Assembly: GCA_001821395.1 (NCBI GenBank)
Contig: MHLM01000004.1
Location: 64,001 to 128,000, forward strand
Direction of reading: 5' to 3'
DNA length: 64,000 nucleotides
From: Candidatus Lloydbacteria bacterium RIFCSPHIGHO2_02_FULL_50_18
GTDB taxonomy: Bacteria > Patescibacteriota > Minisyncoccia > Phycocordibacterales > UBA6899
Part shown: piece after piece, positions 2,378 to 63,799 of the stretch
How positions within the stretch are numbered: position 1 is the first letter of the stretch
Layout of the letters: each line of letters opens with the position of its first letter
Program-made: the position numbers and the translations under genes
The notes under the pieces: model-generated
Databases searched by the model: none
What the model was told of the DNA's origin: nothing
Seen by the model: the letters and a program-made list of their open reading frames with translations, nothing else

Positions 2378-2445
2378 CTCTCCTCGGCACCACGGAGAGT
2401 ACTTCCATTTTTCTAAGTGGATGACCACTAAGAAAAATTGGTCGC
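2378..2445 (+). repeat. Repeat family R1, copy 1 (about 68 bp, contains a 14-bp hairpin ATTTTTCTAAGTGG/CCACTAAGAAAAAT)
   Basis: About 85% identical to 61781..61843, and in reverse orientation to 13304..13373. Confidence 0.7.
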
Positions 2446-2638
2446 TCGGAAATGAAAAAGAAGATTTTTTCATTTCGCTCGCTCTACGTCGGCAATAAAA
2501 AAGCGCTATCGTCTCTTCCGTTGTTTGAGTTATTTTGTCTACCTAGGAACTTTTTCGTGAGTGTTCTTCTTCGGCAAATTCATTTATCGGTGAAGCAGGA
2601 TCCGGGACTCCTAGAAACTCGAATGGCATTACTGTATA

Positions 2639-3325
2639 ATGTCGCTAATGATCTATTTCGATAATGTGACGAAACTATACTCTGACCACGCCGCGGTGTC
2701 GGACGTTACCTTTGGCATTGAGTCGGGGGAATTCCTCTCGATTGTAGGGCATTCGGGTGCCGGGAAAACGTCGCTGTTGCGCCTTCTTTTGGTAGAAGAT
2801 AGGCCGACGTCAGGTGCCGTTTTTTTTGAAAAAACCGATATCCATCGTATCAAGGCCGCTCATGTGCCGGAATATCGCAGACGCATCGGTACTGTTTTTC
2901 AGGATTTTCGGCTGTTTCCCAATAAGACTGCGTATGAGAATATTGCGTTCGCACTTGAGGCTGCCGGACGTACCGATGAGGAGATCCGCTCCGATGTTCC
3001 GCAGGTGCTCGAGCTTGTCGATCTTGCGTCAAAAGCGCTGCATTTTCCGCACGAGCTCTCCGGAGGGGAGAAGCAACGTGTCGCCATCGCGCGTGCTATC
3101 ATTTCGCAACCCGATGTACTGATCGCCGACGAGCCGACGGGAAATCTCGACCCGGTGAATACCTACGACATCATTCAGATATTGAAGAAGATCAATGACA
3201 TGGGAACAACGATCATTTTGACGACGCACAACAAGGGGATCATCGACGCGCTGAAGAAGCGGGTGGTGACGATGGAGAATGGGAAGGTTATACGTGACGA
3301 TGCTCACGGCAAATATATTCTCTAA
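2639..3325 (+). CDS. ftsE: Cell division ATP-binding protein FtsE
   Basis: Walker A GHSGAGKT, LSGGEKQR signature and Walker B IADEPTGNLD. Lies immediately upstream of an FtsX-like permease. Confidence 0.85.
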   Translation: MSLMIYFDNVTKLYSDHAAVSDVTFGIESGEFLSIVGHSGAGKTSLLRLLLVEDRPTSGAVFFEKTDIHRIKAAHVPEYRRRIGTVFQDFRLFPNKTAYENIAFALEAAGRTDEEIRSDVPQVLELVDLASKALHFPHELSGGEKQRVAIARAIISQPDVLIADEPTGNLDPVNTYDIIQILKKINDMGTTIILTTHNKGIIDALKKRVVTMENGKVIRDDAHGKYIL

Positions 3326-3444
3326 TATTTTCGCGCCTCACTTTGTTGTAAGGCAGCGCACTTATGCCCCAGCGACTCGGTCAACATATATGAATATGTC
3401 TTCCTTGTCGCTTTCCCCGCGCCTCGTGATGCATCGAAAATATT
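3324..3444. repeat. Repeat family R2 copy 1 (core 3366..3428) bounded by a perfect 10-bp inverted repeat AATATTTTCG/CGAAAATATT
   Basis: The core is about 85% identical to 37514..37580. The flanking inverted repeat is specific to this locus. Confidence 0.6.
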
Positions 3445-3695
3445 CGAGAATATTTCCTGCATGGCTTCGCTCTTTATCCAAAATCTTAAAGAATGATACA
3501 TAGAACTTCAACCAACACTGACACTAGAGGACGCGTTGCGCCTCGTGATGTGACCAATTTTTCTCAGCGGTACTCCGCTTTAGAAAAATGAAATGCCCTC
3601 TGTGGTACATCAAAAATATTTCGGCCGGCATATTGACATAATCAGTTATTTTCATAGGATGAGTATTGGAAGAGTTTGAAAAGGAGAATTGACCA

Positions 3696-7234: not shown

Positions 7235-9130
7235 ATGATTCAAGAGACCGCTCTTACTATTATGAAAACGGGGGCGAATGTATTCCTCACGGGGGAGCCC
7301 GGGAGCGGTAAAACGCATACCGTAAACGCATATATCCGCTACCTCCGCGAGCACAACGTCAATCCTTCGATCACTGCTTCAACGGGTATCGCCGCGACGC
7401 ACGTCGGCGGGATGACCATTCATTCATGGAGCGGTATCGGCATCAAGCGTGCGCTCACCGAATATGACCTCGATGCGCTGTCCTCGAACGAAGGACTTGT
7501 GAAGCGTATCGCCAATGCAAAGGTGCTTATCATCGATGAGATATCGATGCTCGACGGCAACACGCTGGTCATGGTGGAGGCGGTCACGCGAACGCTTCGT
7601 CGCAAGCACGAGCCTTTCGGCGGACTGCAGATAATTTTCGTCGGCGATTTCTTTCAGCTGCCTCCCATCGCGGACCGGGCAAGCGGTGTTCGTGCGCAGT
7701 TTTGTTTCGAATCAACAGCATGGCGAGTGGCGAATCCCATAGTGTGCTATCTCTCCGAGCAGCACCGTCAGGAAGACACCGCGTTTCTCTCTACGCTTGG
7801 CGCCATTCGCCGCGGAGAGCTCGAGGATAGCGTCTTTGAATATATCGGCGAGAGGCACGTGCTCCCAGGTGAGCATCCACACGACATTCCGCAGCTCTAT
7901 ACGCACAACATTGATGTCGACAAAAAGAATACGGAAGAGCTCGCAAAACTTGAAACGGAAGAAAAGGTCTTTCTCATGAGCACGAAGGGGACGAGCAATC
8001 GCGTGGAGCAGCTGATCAAGGGCTGTCTTTCACCCGAGGAACTGGTGTTGAAAGAAGGCGCATCGGTGATGTTCACCAAAAATAATTTTGAAAACGGCTA
8101 TGTGAACGGCACATTGGGGACGGTGGTGGGATTCGACGAGGACAATGGTTTTCCAATTGTTGAAACATCGGGCGGAGAAAATATTACCGCGCTTCCTTCC
8201 GAATGGGCCGTTGATGATTCTGGGAAAGTGCTCGCCACCATCACTCAGGTACCGCTCCGACTCGCGTGGGCTATTACCGTGCACAAGAGCCAGGGGATGA
8301 GCCTTGATGCCGCGACGATGGATCTCTCGCGCGCATTTGAATACGGGCAAGGGTATGTGGCACTCTCTCGTGTACGCGCATTCTCGGGATTGCACATCCT
8401 CGGCATCAATCAGCGCGCATTCGAGGTGCACCCTCTTGTGCTTGAGCGCGACCTCGCGTTTCACGAGCGTTCGGATGAAGCGGAGGCGGGGTTTCTCGAC
8501 ATGTCGGACGCCGACCTCCGGAAGTTACACGAGAACTTTTTACTCGCCATTGGAGGGAATCTGGCGAAAAAAGAAATCATTGCCAAGGCATTCGGTGTTC
8601 CAAAACTGAGTACGTATGAAGAAACGCTCGCGCTCCTCAGCCCCGGGATGACGCTCGCCGCGATTGCCAAGCGTCGGGACGTGACCGAGGGGACGATCGT
8701 GGGCCATATCGAAGAACTCGCGCTACTCGGAAAGCTCCCGTCGATAGACATCGCCGCCTTTGCCGAGCTTCCTGCGTCGGTGGTGAAGGAGATAACGCAA
8801 ACGATCGAGACGATCGGAGGAGAATTTCTCAAGCCGCTCTACCTTGAATTGGATGAACGTTATTCTTATGAAACGATCCGTCTTGTTCGATTCGGAGCGG
8901 GCATTGCTCCGAAGCAAAAAGACGCCGTCGTTGCGAAAAAAGAAAAGGTAAAAAAGGTGTCACATGAAAAACCCGCAAAGCTCGGAGCGAAGTGGGGAAA
9001 GGAAGAGGAAGAACGACTCACAAAAATGTTCAAAGAGGGAAAGAAGACGAAGGACATCGCACAGACACTTGAACGGCAGTCGGGGGGTATCCGTGCTCGT
9101 TTGAAGAAGCTGGGGCTGATAAAAAAATAG
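7235..9130 (+). CDS. PIF1/RecD-family ATP-dependent DNA helicase with C-terminal HTH-like domains
   Basis: Walker A GEPGSGKT, Walker B LIIDEISM, the QLPPI motif and VHKSQG. The C-terminal roughly 190 aa carry HTH-like segments. Confidence 0.75.
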   Translation: MIQETALTIMKTGANVFLTGEPGSGKTHTVNAYIRYLREHNVNPSITASTGIAATHVGGMTIHSWSGIGIKRALTEYDLDALSSNEGLVKRIANAKVLIIDEISMLDGNTLVMVEAVTRTLRRKHEPFGGLQIIFVGDFFQLPPIADRASGVRAQFCFESTAWRVANPIVCYLSEQHRQEDTAFLSTLGAIRRGELEDSVFEYIGERHVLPGEHPHDIPQLYTHNIDVDKKNTEELAKLETEEKVFLMSTKGTSNRVEQLIKGCLSPEELVLKEGASVMFTKNNFENGYVNGTLGTVVGFDEDNGFPIVETSGGENITALPSEWAVDDSGKVLATITQVPLRLAWAITVHKSQGMSLDAATMDLSRAFEYGQGYVALSRVRAFSGLHILGINQRAFEVHPLVLERDLAFHERSDEAEAGFLDMSDADLRKLHENFLLAIGGNLAKKEIIAKAFGVPKLSTYEETLALLSPGMTLAAIAKRRDVTEGTIVGHIEELALLGKLPSIDIAAFAELPASVVKEITQTIETIGGEFLKPLYLELDERYSYETIRLVRFGAGIAPKQKDAVVAKKEKVKKVSHEKPAKLGAKWGKEEEERLTKMFKEGKKTKDIAQTLERQSGGIRARLKKLGLIKK

Positions 9131-9184
9131 ACAAAAATTTGAAAGCGAGAGGTATTTGACAAGTGCGATAAACTACTGCAGGAT
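9070..9184 (+). repeat. 115-bp direct repeat, copy A (last 61 nt of the helicase CDS plus the downstream TTGACA-containing region)
   Basis: About 90% identical to 10906..11020. Contains TTGACA at 9156..9161. Confidence 0.8.
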
Positions 9185-10905: not shown

Positions 10906-11020
10906 TGAACGCCAGTCGGGAGGTATTCGCTCTCGTTTGAAAAAGCTGGGGCTGATAAAAAAAAGACATACATTTGAAGGCAAGGAGGTATTTGACAAGT
11001 GCGATAAACTACTGCAGGAT
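10906..11020 (+). repeat. 115-bp direct repeat, copy B (contains an out-of-context fragment of the helicase C-terminal coding sequence)
   Basis: Translates to QSGGIRSRLKKLGLIKK, which matches the helicase tail. TTGACA at 10992..10997. Confidence 0.8.
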
Positions 11021-12941: not shown

Positions 12942-13012
12942 TGCGGGTTCGTCTAATGGTAGGACATCGCCCTCTGGAGGCGAGTATTGGGGTTCGAGTC
13001 CCTGACCCGCAG
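12942..13012 (+). tRNA. tRNA-Gln (anticodon CTG)
   Basis: U1:A72 acceptor stem TGCGGGT/ACCCGCA, D-arm GTCT..GGAC, anticodon stem TCGCC/GGCGA with loop CTCTGGA, T-loop TTCGAGT, and discriminator G. CCA is not encoded. Confidence 0.8.
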
Positions 13013-13018
13013 CAAATG

Positions 13019-13046
13019 AAAACACCCCTTTTAATGGGGGTGTTTT
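13019..13046 (+). terminator. Hairpin terminator after tRNA-Gln
   Basis: AAAACACCCC-ttttaa-TGGGGGTGTTTT. Confidence 0.6.
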
Positions 13047-13060
13047 CATTTGCGAGGAGA

Positions 13061-13082
13061 GGAAGCCATCTGCATGGCTTCC
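13061..13082. repeat. 22-bp perfect palindrome GGAAGCCATCTGCATGGCTTCC, copy 1, embedded in an inverted copy of the tRNA-Gln 3' half
   Basis: Identical 22-mer at 61685..61706. Flanked by TTTGCG and GGCAGGGACTCGAA, which match the reverse complement of the tRNA-Gln T-arm and acceptor 3' strand. Confidence 0.8.
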
Positions 13083-13165
13083 GGCAGGGACTCGAAGCCG
13101 TTCTCCCATATTTTCGAGACATTCTTATGTTGAGAAAATAGGAAACGGGTACTGACGCAGTAGGC

Positions 13166-13189
13166 GTCGAGATTCCCTGACCCGCAGCA
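13166..13189 (+). repeat. Direct repeat of the tRNA-Gln 3' end (16 nt exact: TCCCTGACCCGCAGCA), att-like
   Basis: Identical to 12999..13014. Located 160 bp downstream of the tRNA. Confidence 0.8.
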
Positions 13190-13236
13190 GCCGCACAAAA
13201 CCACTCTGTATGGAGTGGTTTTGTTTTGCGGTTGCT

Positions 13237-13255
13237 CGCGGGTCAGGGACTCGAA
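13237..13255 (-). repeat. Inverted copy of the tRNA-Gln 3' end (CGCGGGTCAGGGACTCGAA), forming a roughly 35-bp imperfect hairpin with 13174..13209
   Basis: Reverse complement of TTCGAGTCCCTGACCCGCG. Confidence 0.75.
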
Positions 13256-13303
13256 AGACGGAGGCGGTCTACGCCGCCACTTTCCTAAGTGCGGTGTCGC
13301 CGA

Positions 13304-13373
13304 GCGACATTGTTTTCTTATGAGTAAGCGAGTTAGAAAACAAGAAGTACTCTTGTGGTGCCGGGGTCGAGAG
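13304..13373 (-). repeat. Repeat family R1, copy 3 (reverse orientation), flanked by a 9-bp inverted repeat CCTAAGTGC/GCACTTAGG
   Basis: The reverse complement aligns with 2378..2445: TTTTCTTA..TTAGAAAA..AAGTACTCT..GTGGTGCCG. Confidence 0.65.
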
Positions 13374-13547
13374 CACTTAGGCTTTTGGCTGCCTTGCGCC
13401 AAAATATTTAGTGACTCGTGATCAAGTTTGACCCGTAGACATGTCGTGCTCTTATGATGCGCGTTCTTTTTTAAAAAATATTTTGAGAACAAAAAGAAGC
13501 CTATTTTGTGGTTAAAAAAACCGCAAGCCTTTACTTGCGGTGATATT

Positions 13548-29181: not shown

Positions 29182-29644
29182 AACAGATCTCCTTAATGGT
29201 GAACAACGTTGAACTCTGCCCCATTGTTTATCACCTCTCTATTCCCGTGTCAAACGTTATGGCAAAATAAGCCGTACGATGTCCGGATAAATGAATGACG
29301 CTTTACGAGTAAATTATTGGCGCGTACCATTGTCTCTATGTTATCATCATTTTTGTCGTGGGGGGGGGCTCGATGGCGACGCAAAGATCGCTCAGTGGAA
29401 AAAACAGGTGGAAGGATTTATGCCTATCATTTCCGGCGCACGCATGGAAGAGGATTATCTCAATTTTGCTTTTCTGCAAAAAATCAGCACTCCCGCATCG
29501 GGAAAAGCATCTGCATAGCGGTTTCGGTCGGTATGTACTCGGTCATTTTAGTTGCATAATGAGTGCGCGCAAGTGCCTTCTTGCTTGGAATTGGCCGAAT
29601 GGGGTGGTACAGTTAACCCGTAGTTAATTACATAATAAAAAGAT

Positions 29645-29980
29645 ATGGCAGCAAAAAAAGTAGCAGCAAAAAAGGCAGTCGCTAAAAAAGCAGTAGCAAA
29701 AAAGGCGGTCGCAAAGAAACCTGCAGCAAAAAAGGTCAATTCCGCATTTATGAAACCAATGACGATCAGCGCCGAGCTTGCTCTTGTCGTCGGAAAAGGT
29801 CCGATGCCTCGTTCAGAGGTCGTGAAGAAGCTCTGGGTTTATATCAAGAAGCATGATCTTCAGGATGCAAAAAATAAGCGCAATATCAACGGCGATGCGG
29901 CATTGGTTGCGGTATTCGGCGGAAAGAAGACCGTCAACATGTTTGAAATGACGAAGCTTGTGTCGAAACATCTTTCATAA
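29645..29980 (+). CDS. SWIB/MDM2-domain protein with an N-terminal Lys/Ala-rich histone-H1-like tail
   Basis: AAKKAVAKK repeats followed by ...ELALVVGKGPMPRSEVVKKLWVYIKKHDLQDAKNKRNINGD...MFEMTKLVSKHL. Confidence 0.75.
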   Translation: MAAKKVAAKKAVAKKAVAKKAVAKKPAAKKVNSAFMKPMTISAELALVVGKGPMPRSEVVKKLWVYIKKHDLQDAKNKRNINGDAALVAVFGGKKTVNMFEMTKLVSKHLS

Positions 29981-37470: not shown

Positions 37471-37475
37471 AATTT

Positions 37476-37599
37476 AAATTCAGTTCACTACCCCTATCTG
37501 CTTTGTTGCGGGGGCCCCTGCGACGCGGTCACCATATAAGAATATGTTTTCCTTGCCGCTTTCCCCGCGCCTCGCGTATAGGGGCATTGAACTGAATTT
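37476..37599. repeat. Repeat family R2 copy 2 (core 37514..37580) enclosed by a 22-bp inverted repeat AAATTCAGTTCACTACCCCTAT/ATAGGGGCATTGAACTGAATTT
   Basis: The core is about 85% identical to 3366..3428. The flanking inverted repeat (20 of 22 bp) differs in sequence from the one at copy 1. Confidence 0.6.
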
Positions 37600-37671
37600 A
37601 TGATAGATTATAGCGTATTTTTTAGTATTCCACTTCTCCATCGGGTAAAAATCCATGTATAATGCCATCCT

Positions 37672-61551: not shown

Positions 61552-61626
61552 TCCGGTGTAGCTCAGTGGTAGAGCAGTGCGCTGTTAACGCATTGGTCGC
61601 AGGTTCGAATCCTGCCGCCGGAGCCA
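61552..61626 (+). tRNA. tRNA-Asn (anticodon GTT), CCA encoded
   Basis: U1:A72 acceptor stem TCCGGTG/CGCCGGA, anticodon loop CTGTTAA, T-loop TTCGAAT and a 3' CCA. Confidence 0.85.
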
Positions 61627-61639
61627 ACAAATTTCGTGG

Positions 61640-61668
61640 AAAAGACCCGTATGGGGTCTTTTTCTTTT
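61640..61668 (+). terminator. Hairpin terminator after tRNA-Asn
   Basis: GACCC-gtat-GGGGTC followed by TTTTTCTTTT. Confidence 0.65.
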
Positions 61669-61669
61669 G

Positions 61670-61719
61670 TTGGCTCCGGGCGGAGGAAGCCATCTGCATG
61701 GCTTCCGAAAGGATTCGAA
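61670..61719. repeat. Inverted copy of the tRNA-Asn 3' half interrupted by palindrome GGAAGCCATCTGCATGGCTTCC (61685..61706)
   Basis: TTGGCTCCGGGCGG and AGGATTCGAA match the reverse complement of the tRNA 3' strand. The insert is flanked by AGGA on both sides. Confidence 0.8.
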
Positions 61720-61780
61720 AAGCTTGGTGTTGTTTTGTCTTCAAAACCACCAAGGTGTACCGTCCATGTAATGGAAGAAA

Positions 61781-61843
61781 CTCCTGCACCACAAGAGTAC
61801 TTCATTTTTCTAAGACGGAGTACCATTAAGAAAAATTGGTCGC
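61781..61843 (+). repeat. Repeat family R1, copy 2
   Basis: About 85% identical to 2378..2445. Confidence 0.7.
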
Positions 61844-61854
61844 CGCCGGAGCCA
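61842..61854 (+). repeat. Direct repeat of the tRNA-Asn 3' end (GCCGCCGGAGCCA, 13 nt exact), att-like, abutting R1
   Basis: Identical to 61614..61626. Confidence 0.75.
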
Positions 61855-61958
61855 GAGAATGACCACTATAAATAGTGGTCATTGTTGTGTGTGGAGGATT
61901 CAAACTTTCAGAATATTTGATATAATTTGATAGTTACTATTCTCAATTTTTTAATGAC

Positions 61959-63557
61959 ATGAAAAAATACATATCCATAGCTTTCATTATTGTTGTGGTT
62001 ATTGGTGTTTTTTTATTTTTTCTTGGTAGTTCTACCAACAATAATCTCATTGGAGATAGCGTTAGGATGACCCGCTTACTCGTCAATGGGGTACCTTCGA
62101 GCGGTGGTTTTGTGAATGTGACTTATTTGGAAAGTGAGGAAAAATATCCTGTGATAAATATTGCGGTGGACTTAAACAAAGACGGTGTTATCAAGTCTTA
62201 CGAGGTTGATGGGGGTATTCAGGAAGAATGGCTTGTCACGAATATGTATGCCCAAGTGGTTGGTGGGTCAAAAAATAATTACTCTATTTCTATAAAAGAC
62301 ACAAAACTTGATAGTAAAACTGACCTGCCGGTGTATGTAGTCTTAAGTGAAAATGAGATAAAAGACTGGTCTGGTGAAAAAGTTTCCGGAGGTATATATA
62401 AAGAAATTTTATTATCCAAAATAGATACAATGGATTATGGATCACTGTATGCTCCGGATCCGGAAGGTGAGCGGGCCGGTGGGTCACCATTGGGTTCTGT
62501 TCTGTCCAATAAGGTTTTTGCATATGATGCCGTTAATGAATACAGGACAGATGTTCCTGACATTGATCAGGGGTACAACGAGTGTGTCCCCACGTCCATC
62601 GCCAATTCACTTTTATGGTTAGCTGATAAATATAAGTTTCTCGATAAATTGCCAAAGGGGGGTGATAAAGATTTAATCGCTGAGCTTAAGAGTGACTTAA
62701 AATGGACAAAGTATGGTGTTTTGCATAAAGACATTGTTCCCGGAATAAAAACTTTTATTAAGAGACATAAACTCTTGTTGGAAGCGCATCAAATAGGAGA
62801 AATTAGAGACGACGAAATCATGGCTAAAATAGCGGGGGAGCTTAAAAGGGGACAGGATGTTGAGGGTTGGCTGGAATATCGAGGATATTTTAAAAATGAT
62901 TCCTATCTGCGTAAGGGTGCTCACGTGGTTACGGTGGTTGGTGTTTGGACAAGTCCTCAAGGCACAAAATTTATCGGGTTAAATGATCCTCTGTCTCAAG
63001 GGGGTCATGCGACAGATATTTATGAACTCAGTGGAGTGCAGGTTCTCGATTATGCTTTTCAGGGTGATTATGAGACATATCTCATTTCCGCTTTTGCTGA
63101 GTCACCCATTTCTGAAGAGGAGGTTATGCCGTCTGTTACCATAGATAATTCAAGTATTAAATTAATAAAAGAAACTCATCCTTCCGGTGGAACCACGCGC
63201 ACTTGTTTGGTCACATTGTCAGGAACAGCTACCGGACCGGAGTGCAGTTATGTAACGCTTCAGGGTGGCAAACCTGGCACTGGGTCTACGATGGATATGA
63301 ATGGGGCGGAAAGTTGCCCAGATTGGTCATATTGGGGTACGAGTGGATTTTGTGTTCGTCATCTTAAGCAAAATAATACTACAGCATGGAGTGTTACTTT
63401 TGAGGCTTCTACGTATTGGGGTAAAACTGATTTAGATTTTAGTATAATGTTGGGGGCACCAAAACTGCCTCTCGAAGATCTTTATGGAGGAAATGTTTGT
63501 GCCTCAACTGAAACAGATCAAAAAATATACGATACAATATCTTTGGAGTGTAAGTAA
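61959..63557 (+). CDS. Secreted protein with a predicted papain-like (C39-like) cysteine peptidase domain, in an AT-rich island-like context
   Basis: Signal anchor. YNECVPTSIANSLLWL Cys motif and a GAHVVTVVGV His motif. Visibly lower G+C than the neighbouring genes. Confidence 0.45.
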   Translation: MKKYISIAFIIVVVIGVFLFFLGSSTNNNLIGDSVRMTRLLVNGVPSSGGFVNVTYLESEEKYPVINIAVDLNKDGVIKSYEVDGGIQEEWLVTNMYAQVVGGSKNNYSISIKDTKLDSKTDLPVYVVLSENEIKDWSGEKVSGGIYKEILLSKIDTMDYGSLYAPDPEGERAGGSPLGSVLSNKVFAYDAVNEYRTDVPDIDQGYNECVPTSIANSLLWLADKYKFLDKLPKGGDKDLIAELKSDLKWTKYGVLHKDIVPGIKTFIKRHKLLLEAHQIGEIRDDEIMAKIAGELKRGQDVEGWLEYRGYFKNDSYLRKGAHVVTVVGVWTSPQGTKFIGLNDPLSQGGHATDIYELSGVQVLDYAFQGDYETYLISAFAESPISEEEVMPSVTIDNSSIKLIKETHPSGGTTRTCLVTLSGTATGPECSYVTLQGGKPGTGSTMDMNGAESCPDWSYWGTSGFCVRHLKQNNTTAWSVTFEASTYWGKTDLDFSIMLGAPKLPLEDLYGGNVCASTETDQKIYDTISLECK

Positions 63558-63799
63558 TGTATAGCGGATAGAATTCCTTGAAGAACCGGACCTATTTGAA
63601 TAAAAGCAAAAGAAAAACACCGCGTTGAGGATGTTTTTCTTTTGTTGATGCTTCGTGCAGCGAGCGGAGCTCGCTGGCTGGAACCGAACACCGGAGTATA
63701 AATTTTCAGCAGAAAATATTACGAGGCGGTGCGCAGACCAAAATGTTGCGACGGCAATATTTTGCGTCGCAGGAGAAATTCCTGCCGCCGGAGTCTTTC

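Follow-up and report, generated by a model that had tools for sequence, protein, structure and literature searches.

The window analysed here is a 64,000-nucleotide stretch of the genome of the groundwater bacterium Candidatus Lloydbacteria bacterium RIFCSPHIGHO2_02_FULL_50_18, a member of the candidate phyla radiation (contig MHLM01000004.1, positions 64,001 to 128,000). Downstream of its tRNA-Gln and tRNA-Asn genes lie two identical copies of a palindromic 22-mer, GGAAGCCATCTGCATGGCTTCC, each set within a larger unit that reproduces the 3' half of the adjoining tRNA. In appearance, these units resemble traces left behind by an undescribed type of element that inserts into tRNA genes. More specifically, and with a confidence that stops a little short of even, we read the 22-mer as the side-branch hairpin of an imperfect palindrome which marks the tRNA-proximal end of small integrative units in tRNA 3' halves. 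The units follow a general order: the tRNA 3' half, a terminator, an inverted copy of that half with or without a hairpin at its internal junction, a variable body, and finally the tRNA 3' end again, as a displaced direct copy. The hairpin was found with tRNAs for Gln, Asn, Tyr, Arg and Ser, its hosts are Parcubacteria and one betaproteobacterial lineage, and related alr-tRNA-Tyr loci carry differing arrays of units or none.

Genes for tRNAs are classic landing sites for genomic islands and, to our knowledge, the known insertions at them are gene-carrying elements with an integrase of their own. The units described here are modular and an order of magnitude smaller than known islands, and so far only folded single-strand sites such as CTXφ attP and integron attC resemble their inverted, hairpin-marked target copy.

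Anatomy of the units in the window

The 22-mer was counted twice in the window, with no further site at three or fewer mismatches and none expected from 100 shuffles. Both copies sit 3' of a tRNA terminator and divide a reverse-complement copy of the 3' half of that tRNA (Table 1). This arrangement had been reported in a first-pass annotation of the DNA, and sequence and counts confirm it; a table of flank-to-tRNA complementarity likewise upholds the annotation's remark that the flanks are specific to each tRNA while the insert is shared. At tRNA-Asn, the 22-mer stands opposite tRNA position 64/65, between TGGCTCCGGGCGG, which is the reverse complement of CCGCCGGAGCCA plus one additional G, and AGGATTCGAA, an exact (10/10) reverse complement of the T-loop and T-stem TTCGAATCCT. 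At tRNA-Gln, CAGGGACTCGAA is complementary at 12 of 12 positions to TTCGAGTCCCTG (12993-13004), while the acceptor part, GCGAGGAGA, is degenerate and mirrors only the trailer (GCAAATG/CATTTGC). The acceptor mimic annotated at both genes is thus sound at Asn (12/13) and weaker at Gln, where a related genome, L061, keeps an intact inverted acceptor, GCTGCGGG (GCTGCGGGA), at the corresponding position. The Gln inverted copies mirror the gene trailer GCAAA instead of CCA, so the palindrome copies the gene and not the mature tRNA; a cDNA of mature tRNA or a primer-binding site was rejected on the same ground. The AGGA duplication which the annotation placed around the Asn insert is present, with a left copy that overlaps the palindrome (A+GGA). 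Because an A-GGAAGCC start is common to all eight hairpin copies, AGGA more likely belongs to the inserted unit than represents a target-site duplication.

The hairpins following the two window tRNAs (T1) are bidirectional and of terminator type, and at both genes the palindrome continues unbroken from T54 via the gene trailer into the terminator stem. The arms, 20-30 nt long and some 35-65 nt apart, fold into a hairpin that mimics a duplex target. Folding of single strands with DNA parameters gave a forked hairpin at both sites with the 22-mer as side branch (z-scores against shuffles of -11.2 and -10.9). The hairpin is confined to arm 2, arm 1 being the functional tRNA.

Table 1. Coordinates of the tRNA-associated units and X repeats in the window.
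Feature	Position	Strand	Details and basis
tRNA-Gln(CTG)	12942-13013	+	ARAGORN; Rfam tRNA, 55 bits
Arm 1 of first Gln unit	12993-13013	+	tRNA-Gln 3' half from T54
Terminator T1 of tRNA-Gln	13014-13052	+	AAATGAAAACACCCC..GGGGTGTTTTCATTT; bidirectional, tip of long palindrome; terminator scan and fold
Degenerate inverted acceptor 3' strand	13052-13060	+	GCGAGGAGA; sequence comparison
22-mer, Gln copy	13061-13082	n/a	perfect palindrome of 22 bp with 9-bp stem and CTGC loop; hairpin at the arm 2 junction of Gln unit
Inverted T-stem 3' strand and T-loop	13085-13096	+	CAGGGACTCGAA; ends exactly at T54
Scaffold A, body of unit 1	13097-13166	+	long hairpin GCCGTTCTCCC..GGGAAACGG plus GACGC-AGTAG-GCGTC hairpin; alignment
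Displaced direct tRNA-Gln 3' copy	13167-13189	+	TCGAGATTCCCTGACCCGCAGCA; T-loop altered
Second terminator-like hairpin	13190-13233	+	tip of unit 2; inverted-repeat list, fold
Second inverted copy	13234-13255	+	uninterrupted, without hairpin; inverted-repeat list, fold
Scaffold D	13256-13410	+	AGACGGAGGCG..GGGGTCGAGAGCACTTAGGCTTTTGGC; with nested - strand X-type repeat
tRNA-Asn(GTT)	61552-61626	+	encoded CCA; ARAGORN, Rfam
Arm 1 of Asn unit	61604-61626	+	tRNA-Asn 3' half from T54
Terminator T1 of tRNA-Asn	61627-61670	+	palindrome on through trailer (CCAACAAA / TTTGTTGG); terminator scan, fold
Inverted acceptor 3' strand and CCA	61671-61683	+	TGGCTCCGGGCGG; 12/13 complementary
22-mer, Asn copy	61685-61706	n/a	second palindrome copy, as at Gln
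Inverted T-loop and part of T-stem	61710-61719	+	AGGATTCGAA
Scaffold B	61720-61787	+	AAGC-hairpin-GGTGTACCGTCCATGTAATGGAAGAAACTCCTGC; alignment
X-type hairpin repeat in Asn unit	61786-61843	+	GCACCAC..TTTTTCTAAG..AAGAAAAATTGGTCGC; interrupts direct copy at T-stem/acceptor junction
Displaced direct copy of tRNA-Asn acceptor 3' strand and CCA	61843-61854	+	CCGCCGGAGCCA
Second terminator (61858-61883) and degenerate inverted T-arm (61894-61905)	61855-61905	+	T-arm GAGGATTCAAAC; terminator scan, fold
532-aa secreted protein of unknown family, cargo-like gene	61959-63557	+	between inverted T-arm remnant and third tRNA-Asn fragment
Third, outermost tRNA-Asn 3' fragment	63766-63796	+	GTCGCAGGAGAAATTCCTGCCGCCGGAG; T-loop altered; direct-repeat list; array end
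X-type repeat	2385-2448	+	
X-type repeat	3550-3610	-	
X-type repeat in scaffold D	~13296-13367	-	

Each window locus holds an array. The direct tRNA 3' copies begin some 70-130 nt beyond the inverted ones and are followed by a second terminator and a further inverted copy. In the second Gln unit this inverted copy is uninterrupted; its GCGGGTCAGGGACTCGAA is complementary to the real tRNA-Gln at 18 of 18 positions, providing an 'empty' junction for comparison, and it fits the T-loop of the real tRNA better than that of its own altered partner. In the Asn array, the degenerate inverted T-arm overlaps the -35 box of a promoter-like site of the 532-aa gene. This site (61899-61926: TTCAAA, 16 nt, TG-n-TATAAT), whose -35 box lies in the part of the T-arm reading GGATTCAAAC, matches the sigma-70 consensus at 10 of 12 positions, as does the promoter of tRNA-Gln. 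A gene for the competence regulator TfoX adjoins tRNA-Gln.

Bodies consist of one of at least four shuffling scaffolds, the 532-aa gene, or an islet with an integrase remnant. Scaffold A occurs at the window Gln locus, at tRNA-Tyr of L082 and, in part, at tRNA-Tyr of L105, with about 90% identity and one compensatory hairpin change (GACGC/GCGTC vs GACCC/GGGTC). Scaffold B is shared by the window Asn locus, tRNA-Tyr of L010 (twice), L082 and L105, and the region upstream of tRNA-Asn in L101. Scaffold C, found at L041 Arg, L061 Gln and L010 Tyr, also shows a compensatory change (GGTTTTCG/CGAAAACC vs GGATTTCG/CGAAATCC), and scaffold D is common to the second window Gln unit and L109 Tyr, with a D-like stretch at L105 Trp. 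All bodies begin after GGAYTCGA-A (the hyphen marking the boundary) and end at (C/A)GA, which the remaining T-loop follows. The bodies lie between inverted and direct tRNA copies. TCGA stands at both ends of scaffold A (window, L082) but not of scaffolds B and C; it is also the centre of GGATTCGAATCC, a perfect 12-bp palindrome.

A separate family of roughly 60-nt hairpin repeats, termed X (GCACCAC..AGAGTACTTC..TTTTTCTAAG-hairpin-CTTAGAAAAATTGGTCGC), has four copies in the window. Two form an inverted pair around an ftsE-like ABC ATPase gene (2639-3325), between prfB and ftsX, and the remaining two are nested in the Gln and Asn units. A minimal version, GCACCACGCAGTATGCGTGGTCGC, was observed in L094.

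Related units and differences between orthologous loci

Species-representative genomes, one per species, were scanned for the hairpin stem with any loop. This returned 81 loci, mostly chance terminators, of which five had GGAYTCGAA four nucleotides after the hairpin together with a tRNA 25-260 nt upstream and were retained (unit signature GGAAGCCAT..ATGGCTTCC-N4-GGAYTCGAA). They comprise tRNA-Ser in a member of the Paceibacteria (L006), tRNA-Tyr and tRNA-Arg in Lloydbacteria (L010 and L041), tRNA-Gln in the unclassified bacterial metagenome-assembled genome GFS_5529 (L061), and tRNA-Ser in an Undibacterium-like betaproteobacterium whose placement was called genuine (L069/L083); a metagenome scan added a tRNA-Tyr unit (L082/L084). 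All five exact copies of the 22-mer, spread over four genomes, lie at the same junction beside a tRNA, as do three stem-identical variants with other loops. The occurrence at many unrelated sites that the first-pass annotation named as the mark of a generic repetitive extragenic palindromic (REP) sequence is thus not what was found in the window and these four genomes, and a generic REP was rejected on copy number and tRNA context. The exact 22-mer had no match in IMG/VR or in the metagenome collection, scaffold and hairpin patterns gave only chance matches in coding DNA in IMG/VR, and blastn against INPHARED phages, PLSDB plasmids and E. coli genomes yielded nothing significant; a phage or plasmid carrier was rejected on the IMG/VR, INPHARED and PLSDB searches.

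The relationship between unit and tRNA holds across these contexts. To the right of the hairpin, all nine tRNA-proximal units carry 10-14 nt that pair with the upstream tRNA without a mismatch and stop at T54; this flank fits that tRNA better than the downstream direct copy. It also tracks the local T-loop variant, reading ACTCGAA where the tRNA carries TTCGAGT (Gln; L010 Tyr); as this is the exact reverse complement, a direct tRNA-like reading of the 'inverted' T-part was rejected. The left flank matches the acceptor by at least 9 nt in six of the nine. The outer cores, TTCGARTCC and GGAYTCGAA, derive from the T-loop, and 10 units have a 13-22-nt hairpin at position 64-66, always on arm 2 alone. 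Displaced direct tRNA 3' copies were also seen in L006, L010, L041, L069, L082 and L109, and in L105 at tRNA-Trp but not at tRNA-Tyr.

A constant 24-nt insert (A, the 22-mer, G) is present in seven of the eight hairpin copies, that of L069 ending in A. The L109 hairpin (GAAAGCC..GGCTTTC) differs by a compensatory G-C to A-T change, the first unit of L010 has a different junction hairpin, GGAATTGCC-CAAT-GGCACTTCC, L105 has CAAGC-GAAG-CTTG at the same place, and the proximal unit of L109, like the second inverted copy at the window tRNA-Gln, is contiguous and hairpin-less. Judging from these sequences, the junction hairpin is conserved as structure rather than sequence. Its immediate flank travels with it: CCGGCGGGATTCGAA, the inverted T-arm stretch of about 13 nt next to the hairpin, is identical in the lloydbacterial L010 and the betaproteobacterial L130 and fits the local T-stem perfectly in neither, and GAAAGGATTCGAA is common to the window Asn unit and the L041 tRNA-Arg unit.

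Comparison of orthologous loci provides the evidence for insertion. A terminator, T2 (AAACCGA..TCGGTTTT), is common to four alr-tRNA-Tyr loci. It lies directly 3' of tRNA-Tyr in L107, which has no units; in L010 and L109 it lies 3' of a displaced tRNA copy, with different units in between; and in L105 it follows a partial scaffold A without a recognisable tRNA copy. At three tRNA-Tyr loci the T2 terminators are then followed by a TGCGTA-like inverted acceptor. T2 is best read as a conserved ancestral terminator beyond the units.

A second comparison involves L130 and the 97%-related L069. L130 has tRNA-Ser, a terminator, a perfect inverted acceptor, the hairpin and GGCGGGATTCGAA, matching L069 up to the inverted T-arm. 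The unit then abuts an islet of about 2.2 kb which opens with what is left of a 5'-truncated P4-type integrase, its C-terminal third (NF007246 positions 283-405 of 413, E 7e-16), includes a gene for AlpA and closes with the terminator in a displaced copy. In L069 this position is taken up by no more than 45 nt and the displaced tRNA end. Thus the recombining side is the DNA to the right of GGAYTCGAA. In the distal unit of L069, the inverted acceptor is followed by a second T-run, in effect a nested terminator.

L101 is the ortholog of the window Asn locus, the neighbouring abhydrolase being 90% identical. On the - strand (60-250) it has a 185-nt scaffold-B-like insert in the tRNA-Asn transcription unit, absent from the window and flanked by a 12-nt direct repeat of the tRNA-Asn 5' end, TTCCGGTGTAGC; the same scaffold families therefore appear to insert 5' of a tRNA as well.

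Further observations were made at these loci. In L010, a free-standing gene for a LAGLIDADG homing-endonuclease-like protein with an HTH domain (1554-2351) overlaps the start of tRNA-Tyr (2337-2420). This tRNA differs throughout, acceptor stem included, from the orthologous tRNA-Tyr of L082, L105, L107 and L109, and the displaced 3' fragment downstream of it is of the orthologous type, which suggests replacement of the tRNA-Tyr allele driven by a homing endonuclease. In L107, the one related genome without units at tRNA-Tyr, a gene for a 566-aa large serine recombinase (613-2313) converges on the 3' end of tRNA-Tyr (2277-2361), overlapping it by gene call. A 193-aa gene of the AEP-like primase-polymerase family lies between rpmG and tRNA-Trp in L109 (5423-6004) and L110 (1523-2104), and in L105 (5373-5442) rpmG and tRNA-Trp are adjacent.

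Short assemblies of the source population often end inside tRNA-Gln or tRNA-Asn (L090-L094, L097, L098, L100). Strain-level variation was rejected, as the source-population contigs are all identical across the units and many short ones simply break inside the tRNAs. In L094 (1-110), the 5' part of tRNA-Gln is joined to another 3' end and flank (ACCGGCAGT ... TGCCGGACGGAACTCGAA), with an inverted copy lacking the hairpin; this is either a chimeric assembly or the flank of a second Gln-type tRNA.

A proposed folded insertion site and competing explanations

The explanation we favour is serial insertion by way of a folded site. A unit would bring along a new tRNA 3' half starting at the T-loop, a terminator of its own, the inverted copy (arm 2) and a variable body; the 3' end that the tRNA had before would come to lie farther downstream, forming a direct repeat. 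Arrays would build up as further units enter the regenerated tRNA, and their outer members would decay. The single-stranded form is predicted to fold into a forked hairpin made of the two arms and the terminator loop between them, in which tRNA positions 54-76, the target, are restored as a duplex bearing an asymmetric bulge. We infer that a circular single strand carrying this folded site may integrate by one strand exchange at the double-stranded target, with a tyrosine recombinase encoded elsewhere acting on the folded site, and that correction within the palindrome probably maintains the match between the arms and the local tRNA. Under such a model arm 2 would end at T54 because T54 is the stem base of the folded site, the hairpin would be confined to arm 2 because arm 1 must stay a working tRNA, and the inverted copy of the second Gln unit would fit the real T-loop best because its partner would have served as the functional 3' end until the next insertion took place.

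Displaced tRNA fragments in tandem are familiar as a mark of integration. Like Islander-style tRNA-targeting islands of tyrosine integrases, the units leave an intact tRNA, a direct 3' repeat at the far end and decaying tandem arrays, their contents vary between related genomes, and one instance has the P4-type integrase remnant and AlpA. They differ in that most are 100-250 bp long, without genes or integrase, and in carrying an inverted copy of the target after their own terminator, often split by a hairpin; no such description was found for islands. The integrase gene that marks an island is absent from the window and the Parcubacteria loci. A limited full-text literature search on mobile and tRNA-associated elements of candidate-phyla-radiation bacteria, as well as Rfam 15, returned no description of such units. 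Relative to known tRNA islands, it is the inverted hairpin-marked target copy and the miniature modular bodies that we did not find described.

By analogy, the imperfect palindrome probably acts as a folded attachment site, like CTXφ attP or integron attC, for a recombinase encoded elsewhere. CTXφ has two inverted attP sequences 90 bp apart, and host XerCD acts on its folded (+) single-stranded DNA, integrating it irreversibly and with the formation of tandem arrays (PMC4246890). With CTXφ attP(+) and the integrative mobile elements exploiting Xer (IMEX) the units share inverted target-like arms, a short spacer, a forked hairpin, an extra stretch on one arm, the lack of an own recombinase, a regenerated target and the formation of arrays. 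The target here, however, is a tRNA 3' half and not dif, the bodies are tiny, no phage genome, replication module or single-stranded form is known, and no XerCD-type 11+6+11 site was recognised. Integron attC sites and cassettes are similar in their imperfect palindromes with conserved outer inverted cores, variable centre and features on one strand, and in their arrays separating short cargo segments, some without open reading frames (ORFs); the units differ in lacking R''/R' boxes (RYYYAAC/GTTRRRY), intI and attI, and in having arms which copy the adjacent tRNA.

Several aspects of the data weigh against this explanation. Among the 59 window ORFs of at least 120 aa there is no recombinase, transposase or reverse transcriptase, which led us to reject a local recombinase. 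At the other loci no recombinase is consistently found beside the units, an integrase being present only as the L130 remnant, and no free form (phage, plasmid or circular) was encountered in IMG/VR, INPHARED or PLSDB. Bodies, mostly 45-130 nt, are too small for an autonomous element, and the L130 unit beside the truncated integrase needs an additional deletion. The acquisition of different tRNA-specific arms by one hairpin-plus-scaffold block is unexplained, and the crossover point (the T-loop TCGA or the 65/66 junction) is not fixable from the sequences. The proximal tRNA-Tyr of L010 being a different allele, at least one array was reshaped by another route. A Xer-like gene does occur in L041, 3.4 kb from the unit; Xer-like genes are housekeeping genes. 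The more ambitious proposal of a previously unrecognised integration system, with small gene-poor elements, a folded single-stranded tRNA-mimic site, a hairpin as its asymmetry mark and passage between Parcubacteria and Betaproteobacteria, we consider unlikely, if less so than any of the competing explanations that follow.

One of these takes the units for structured tRNA-like RNAs, in which the inverted-to-direct module closes as an acceptor and T-stem 'minihelix' with an NCCA-like 3' end, the 22-mer branches off where the D and anticodon arms leave a tRNA, and the scaffold replaces the T-loop; processing by RNase P or RNase Z, or a part as decoy or sponge for tRNA-binding factors, would be possible. 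The ends can pair as an acceptor-like NCCA helix and a T-stem-like helix, with a branch at the place of the D and anticodon arms, as in the tRNA-like domain of tmRNA, YrlA and viral tRNA-like structures, and the modules fold as cloverleaf-like multibranch structures. The + strand fold is the more stable in 18 of 26 segments (G-U pairs 37 vs 26), the hairpins of scaffolds A and C and the L109 variant show compensatory changes, CCA is kept at the module 3' end where the tRNA encodes it, and in L041 the module's direct copy (CCTT) is a better partner for the inverted AAGG than the tRNA (CCTG) is. The strand asymmetry is nevertheless weak, the units lack a T-loop, and each module is insulated between canonical terminators, where a consensus scan found no sigma-70-like promoter. 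The inverted T-part fits the upstream tRNA better than its own 3' partner in nine of nine units, and orthologous loci differ in content, one 'T-loop insert' being a 1.6-kb gene and another the integrase islet. A known RNA family was rejected: in Rfam 15, at gathering and permissive E-value thresholds, only tRNAs scored in the window sites and six loci, apart from meaningless microRNA-hairpin matches. A structured-RNA role is therefore improbable, less likely than insertion, and the conserved RNA module suggested in the first-pass annotation finds little support, given these terminators, the outcome of the promoter scan, the weak asymmetry and the insertion-like differences; were the units RNAs, they would constitute a new class of tRNA-linked structured RNA. 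Guide RNAs (H/ACA pockets, IS110 bridge loops, TIGR tigRNA) also place two target-complementary segments around a conserved hairpin. Those of the units, however, pair with one continuous strand over 10-13 nt, running into the trailer, and no box motifs and no Nop, IS110, Cbf5-type or Tas gene were found in the window. TIGR architecture has 9-nt spacers and box C/D motifs (PMC12045711). TIGR, IS110 bridge RNA and H/ACA-type split guides were rejected, their architecture and associated genes being a misfit.

The three explanations left are each less probable still. The 22-mer itself could be a miniature mobile REP-like palindrome of the REP-associated tyrosine transposase (RAYT)/IS200 HUH type, preferring the acceptor/T-stem junction of pre-existing inverted copies. 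The uninterrupted copies at 13234-13255 and in L109 resemble empty sites, the same 22-mer and the constant 24-nt insert recur in differing tRNA contexts, and the distance from hairpin foot to TCGA is constant at 8-9 nt, a spacing that presumably recalls IS608 right ends. Similarly, REP sequences and bacterial interspersed mosaic elements, as well as miniature inverted-repeat transposable elements (MITEs), are short intergenic palindromic repeats near terminators, mutually nested, and the X and scaffold families recur in this manner. The two copies in 64 kb are nonetheless both tRNA-linked and none is dispersed; the 22-mer was never found away from a tRNA unit, no clear target-site duplication was seen, and neither a Y1/HUH gene nor a RAYT or IS200-like Y1 transposase gene is among the window ORFs. 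The palindrome is perfect, without a REP-type 5' tetranucleotide, unrelated hairpins occupy the same junction, and across phyla the hairpin co-travels with the following 13 nt. A free-standing 22-bp element, as first proposed, thus did not hold up; what survives of the small-palindrome idea is its specificity for tRNA contexts, the hairpin being only one part of a larger unit with a body and a displaced direct copy. To a cis-acting extension of the tRNA terminator, strengthening bidirectional termination or trapping read-through precursors for degradation, with the hairpin neutral or stabilising, we give equally little credence. The unbroken palindrome from T54 through the trailer into the terminator, the nested distal terminator of L069 and the inverted acceptors after T2 at three tRNA-Tyr loci would suit it; the inverted T-arm and hairpin, however, lie beyond the U-tract and are hence dispensable for termination, and the displaced copies, shuffling bodies, cross-phylum identity of the hairpin with CCGGCGGGATTCGAA and integrase islet are left unaccounted for, the acceptor-proximal part being all that such an extension covers. 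It is just as doubtful that the units are non-functional debris at tRNA recombination hot spots, produced by natural transformation with conserved tRNA sequence as its anchor, homing-endonuclease breaks or decayed islands, the palindromes and hairpins arising as by-products. Decayed copies in the arrays, the LAGLIDADG gene by the replaced L010 allele, the serine recombinase by the L107 tRNA-Tyr and TfoX beside tRNA-Gln are compatible with debris, from which the same hairpin and junction in eight independent contexts, a compensatory stem change and a constant T54 boundary would not be expected.

If insertion through a folded site is correct, the units would point to a path for gene exchange in candidate-phyla-radiation bacteria, about whose mobile elements little is known; on the more ambitious proposal they would amount to a tRNA-anchored analogue of integron cassettes or IMEX in naturally competent, ultra-small bacteria. 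A folded insertion site would also account for the assembly breaks at tRNAs and provide a search signature: tRNA, terminator, inverted acceptor, hairpin, GGAYTCGAA.

Other repeats in the window

Three further repeats were observed. A 61-nt intergenic repeat, 90% identical between its copies at 3366-3426 and 37514-37574, is bracketed at the latter by a 23-nt inverted repeat (37475-37497 / 37578-37600) and may represent a further MITE-like family. Another repeat, about 115 nt long (9070-9184 and 10906-11020; 58 nt at 90% and 36 nt at 100%) covers, in one copy, the 3' end of a Pif1-helicase gene and the spacer before a BT1-transporter gene and, in the other, the BT1-SbmA/BacA spacer; with its TTGACA-like box, it may represent the duplication of a promoter or regulatory region. 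Finally, tandem 15-nt repeats rich in AAAAAGG/GCAGC occupy 29638-29735 and, if translated, would encode a lysine/alanine-rich repeat like a histone-H1-like or KAAK-type tail.

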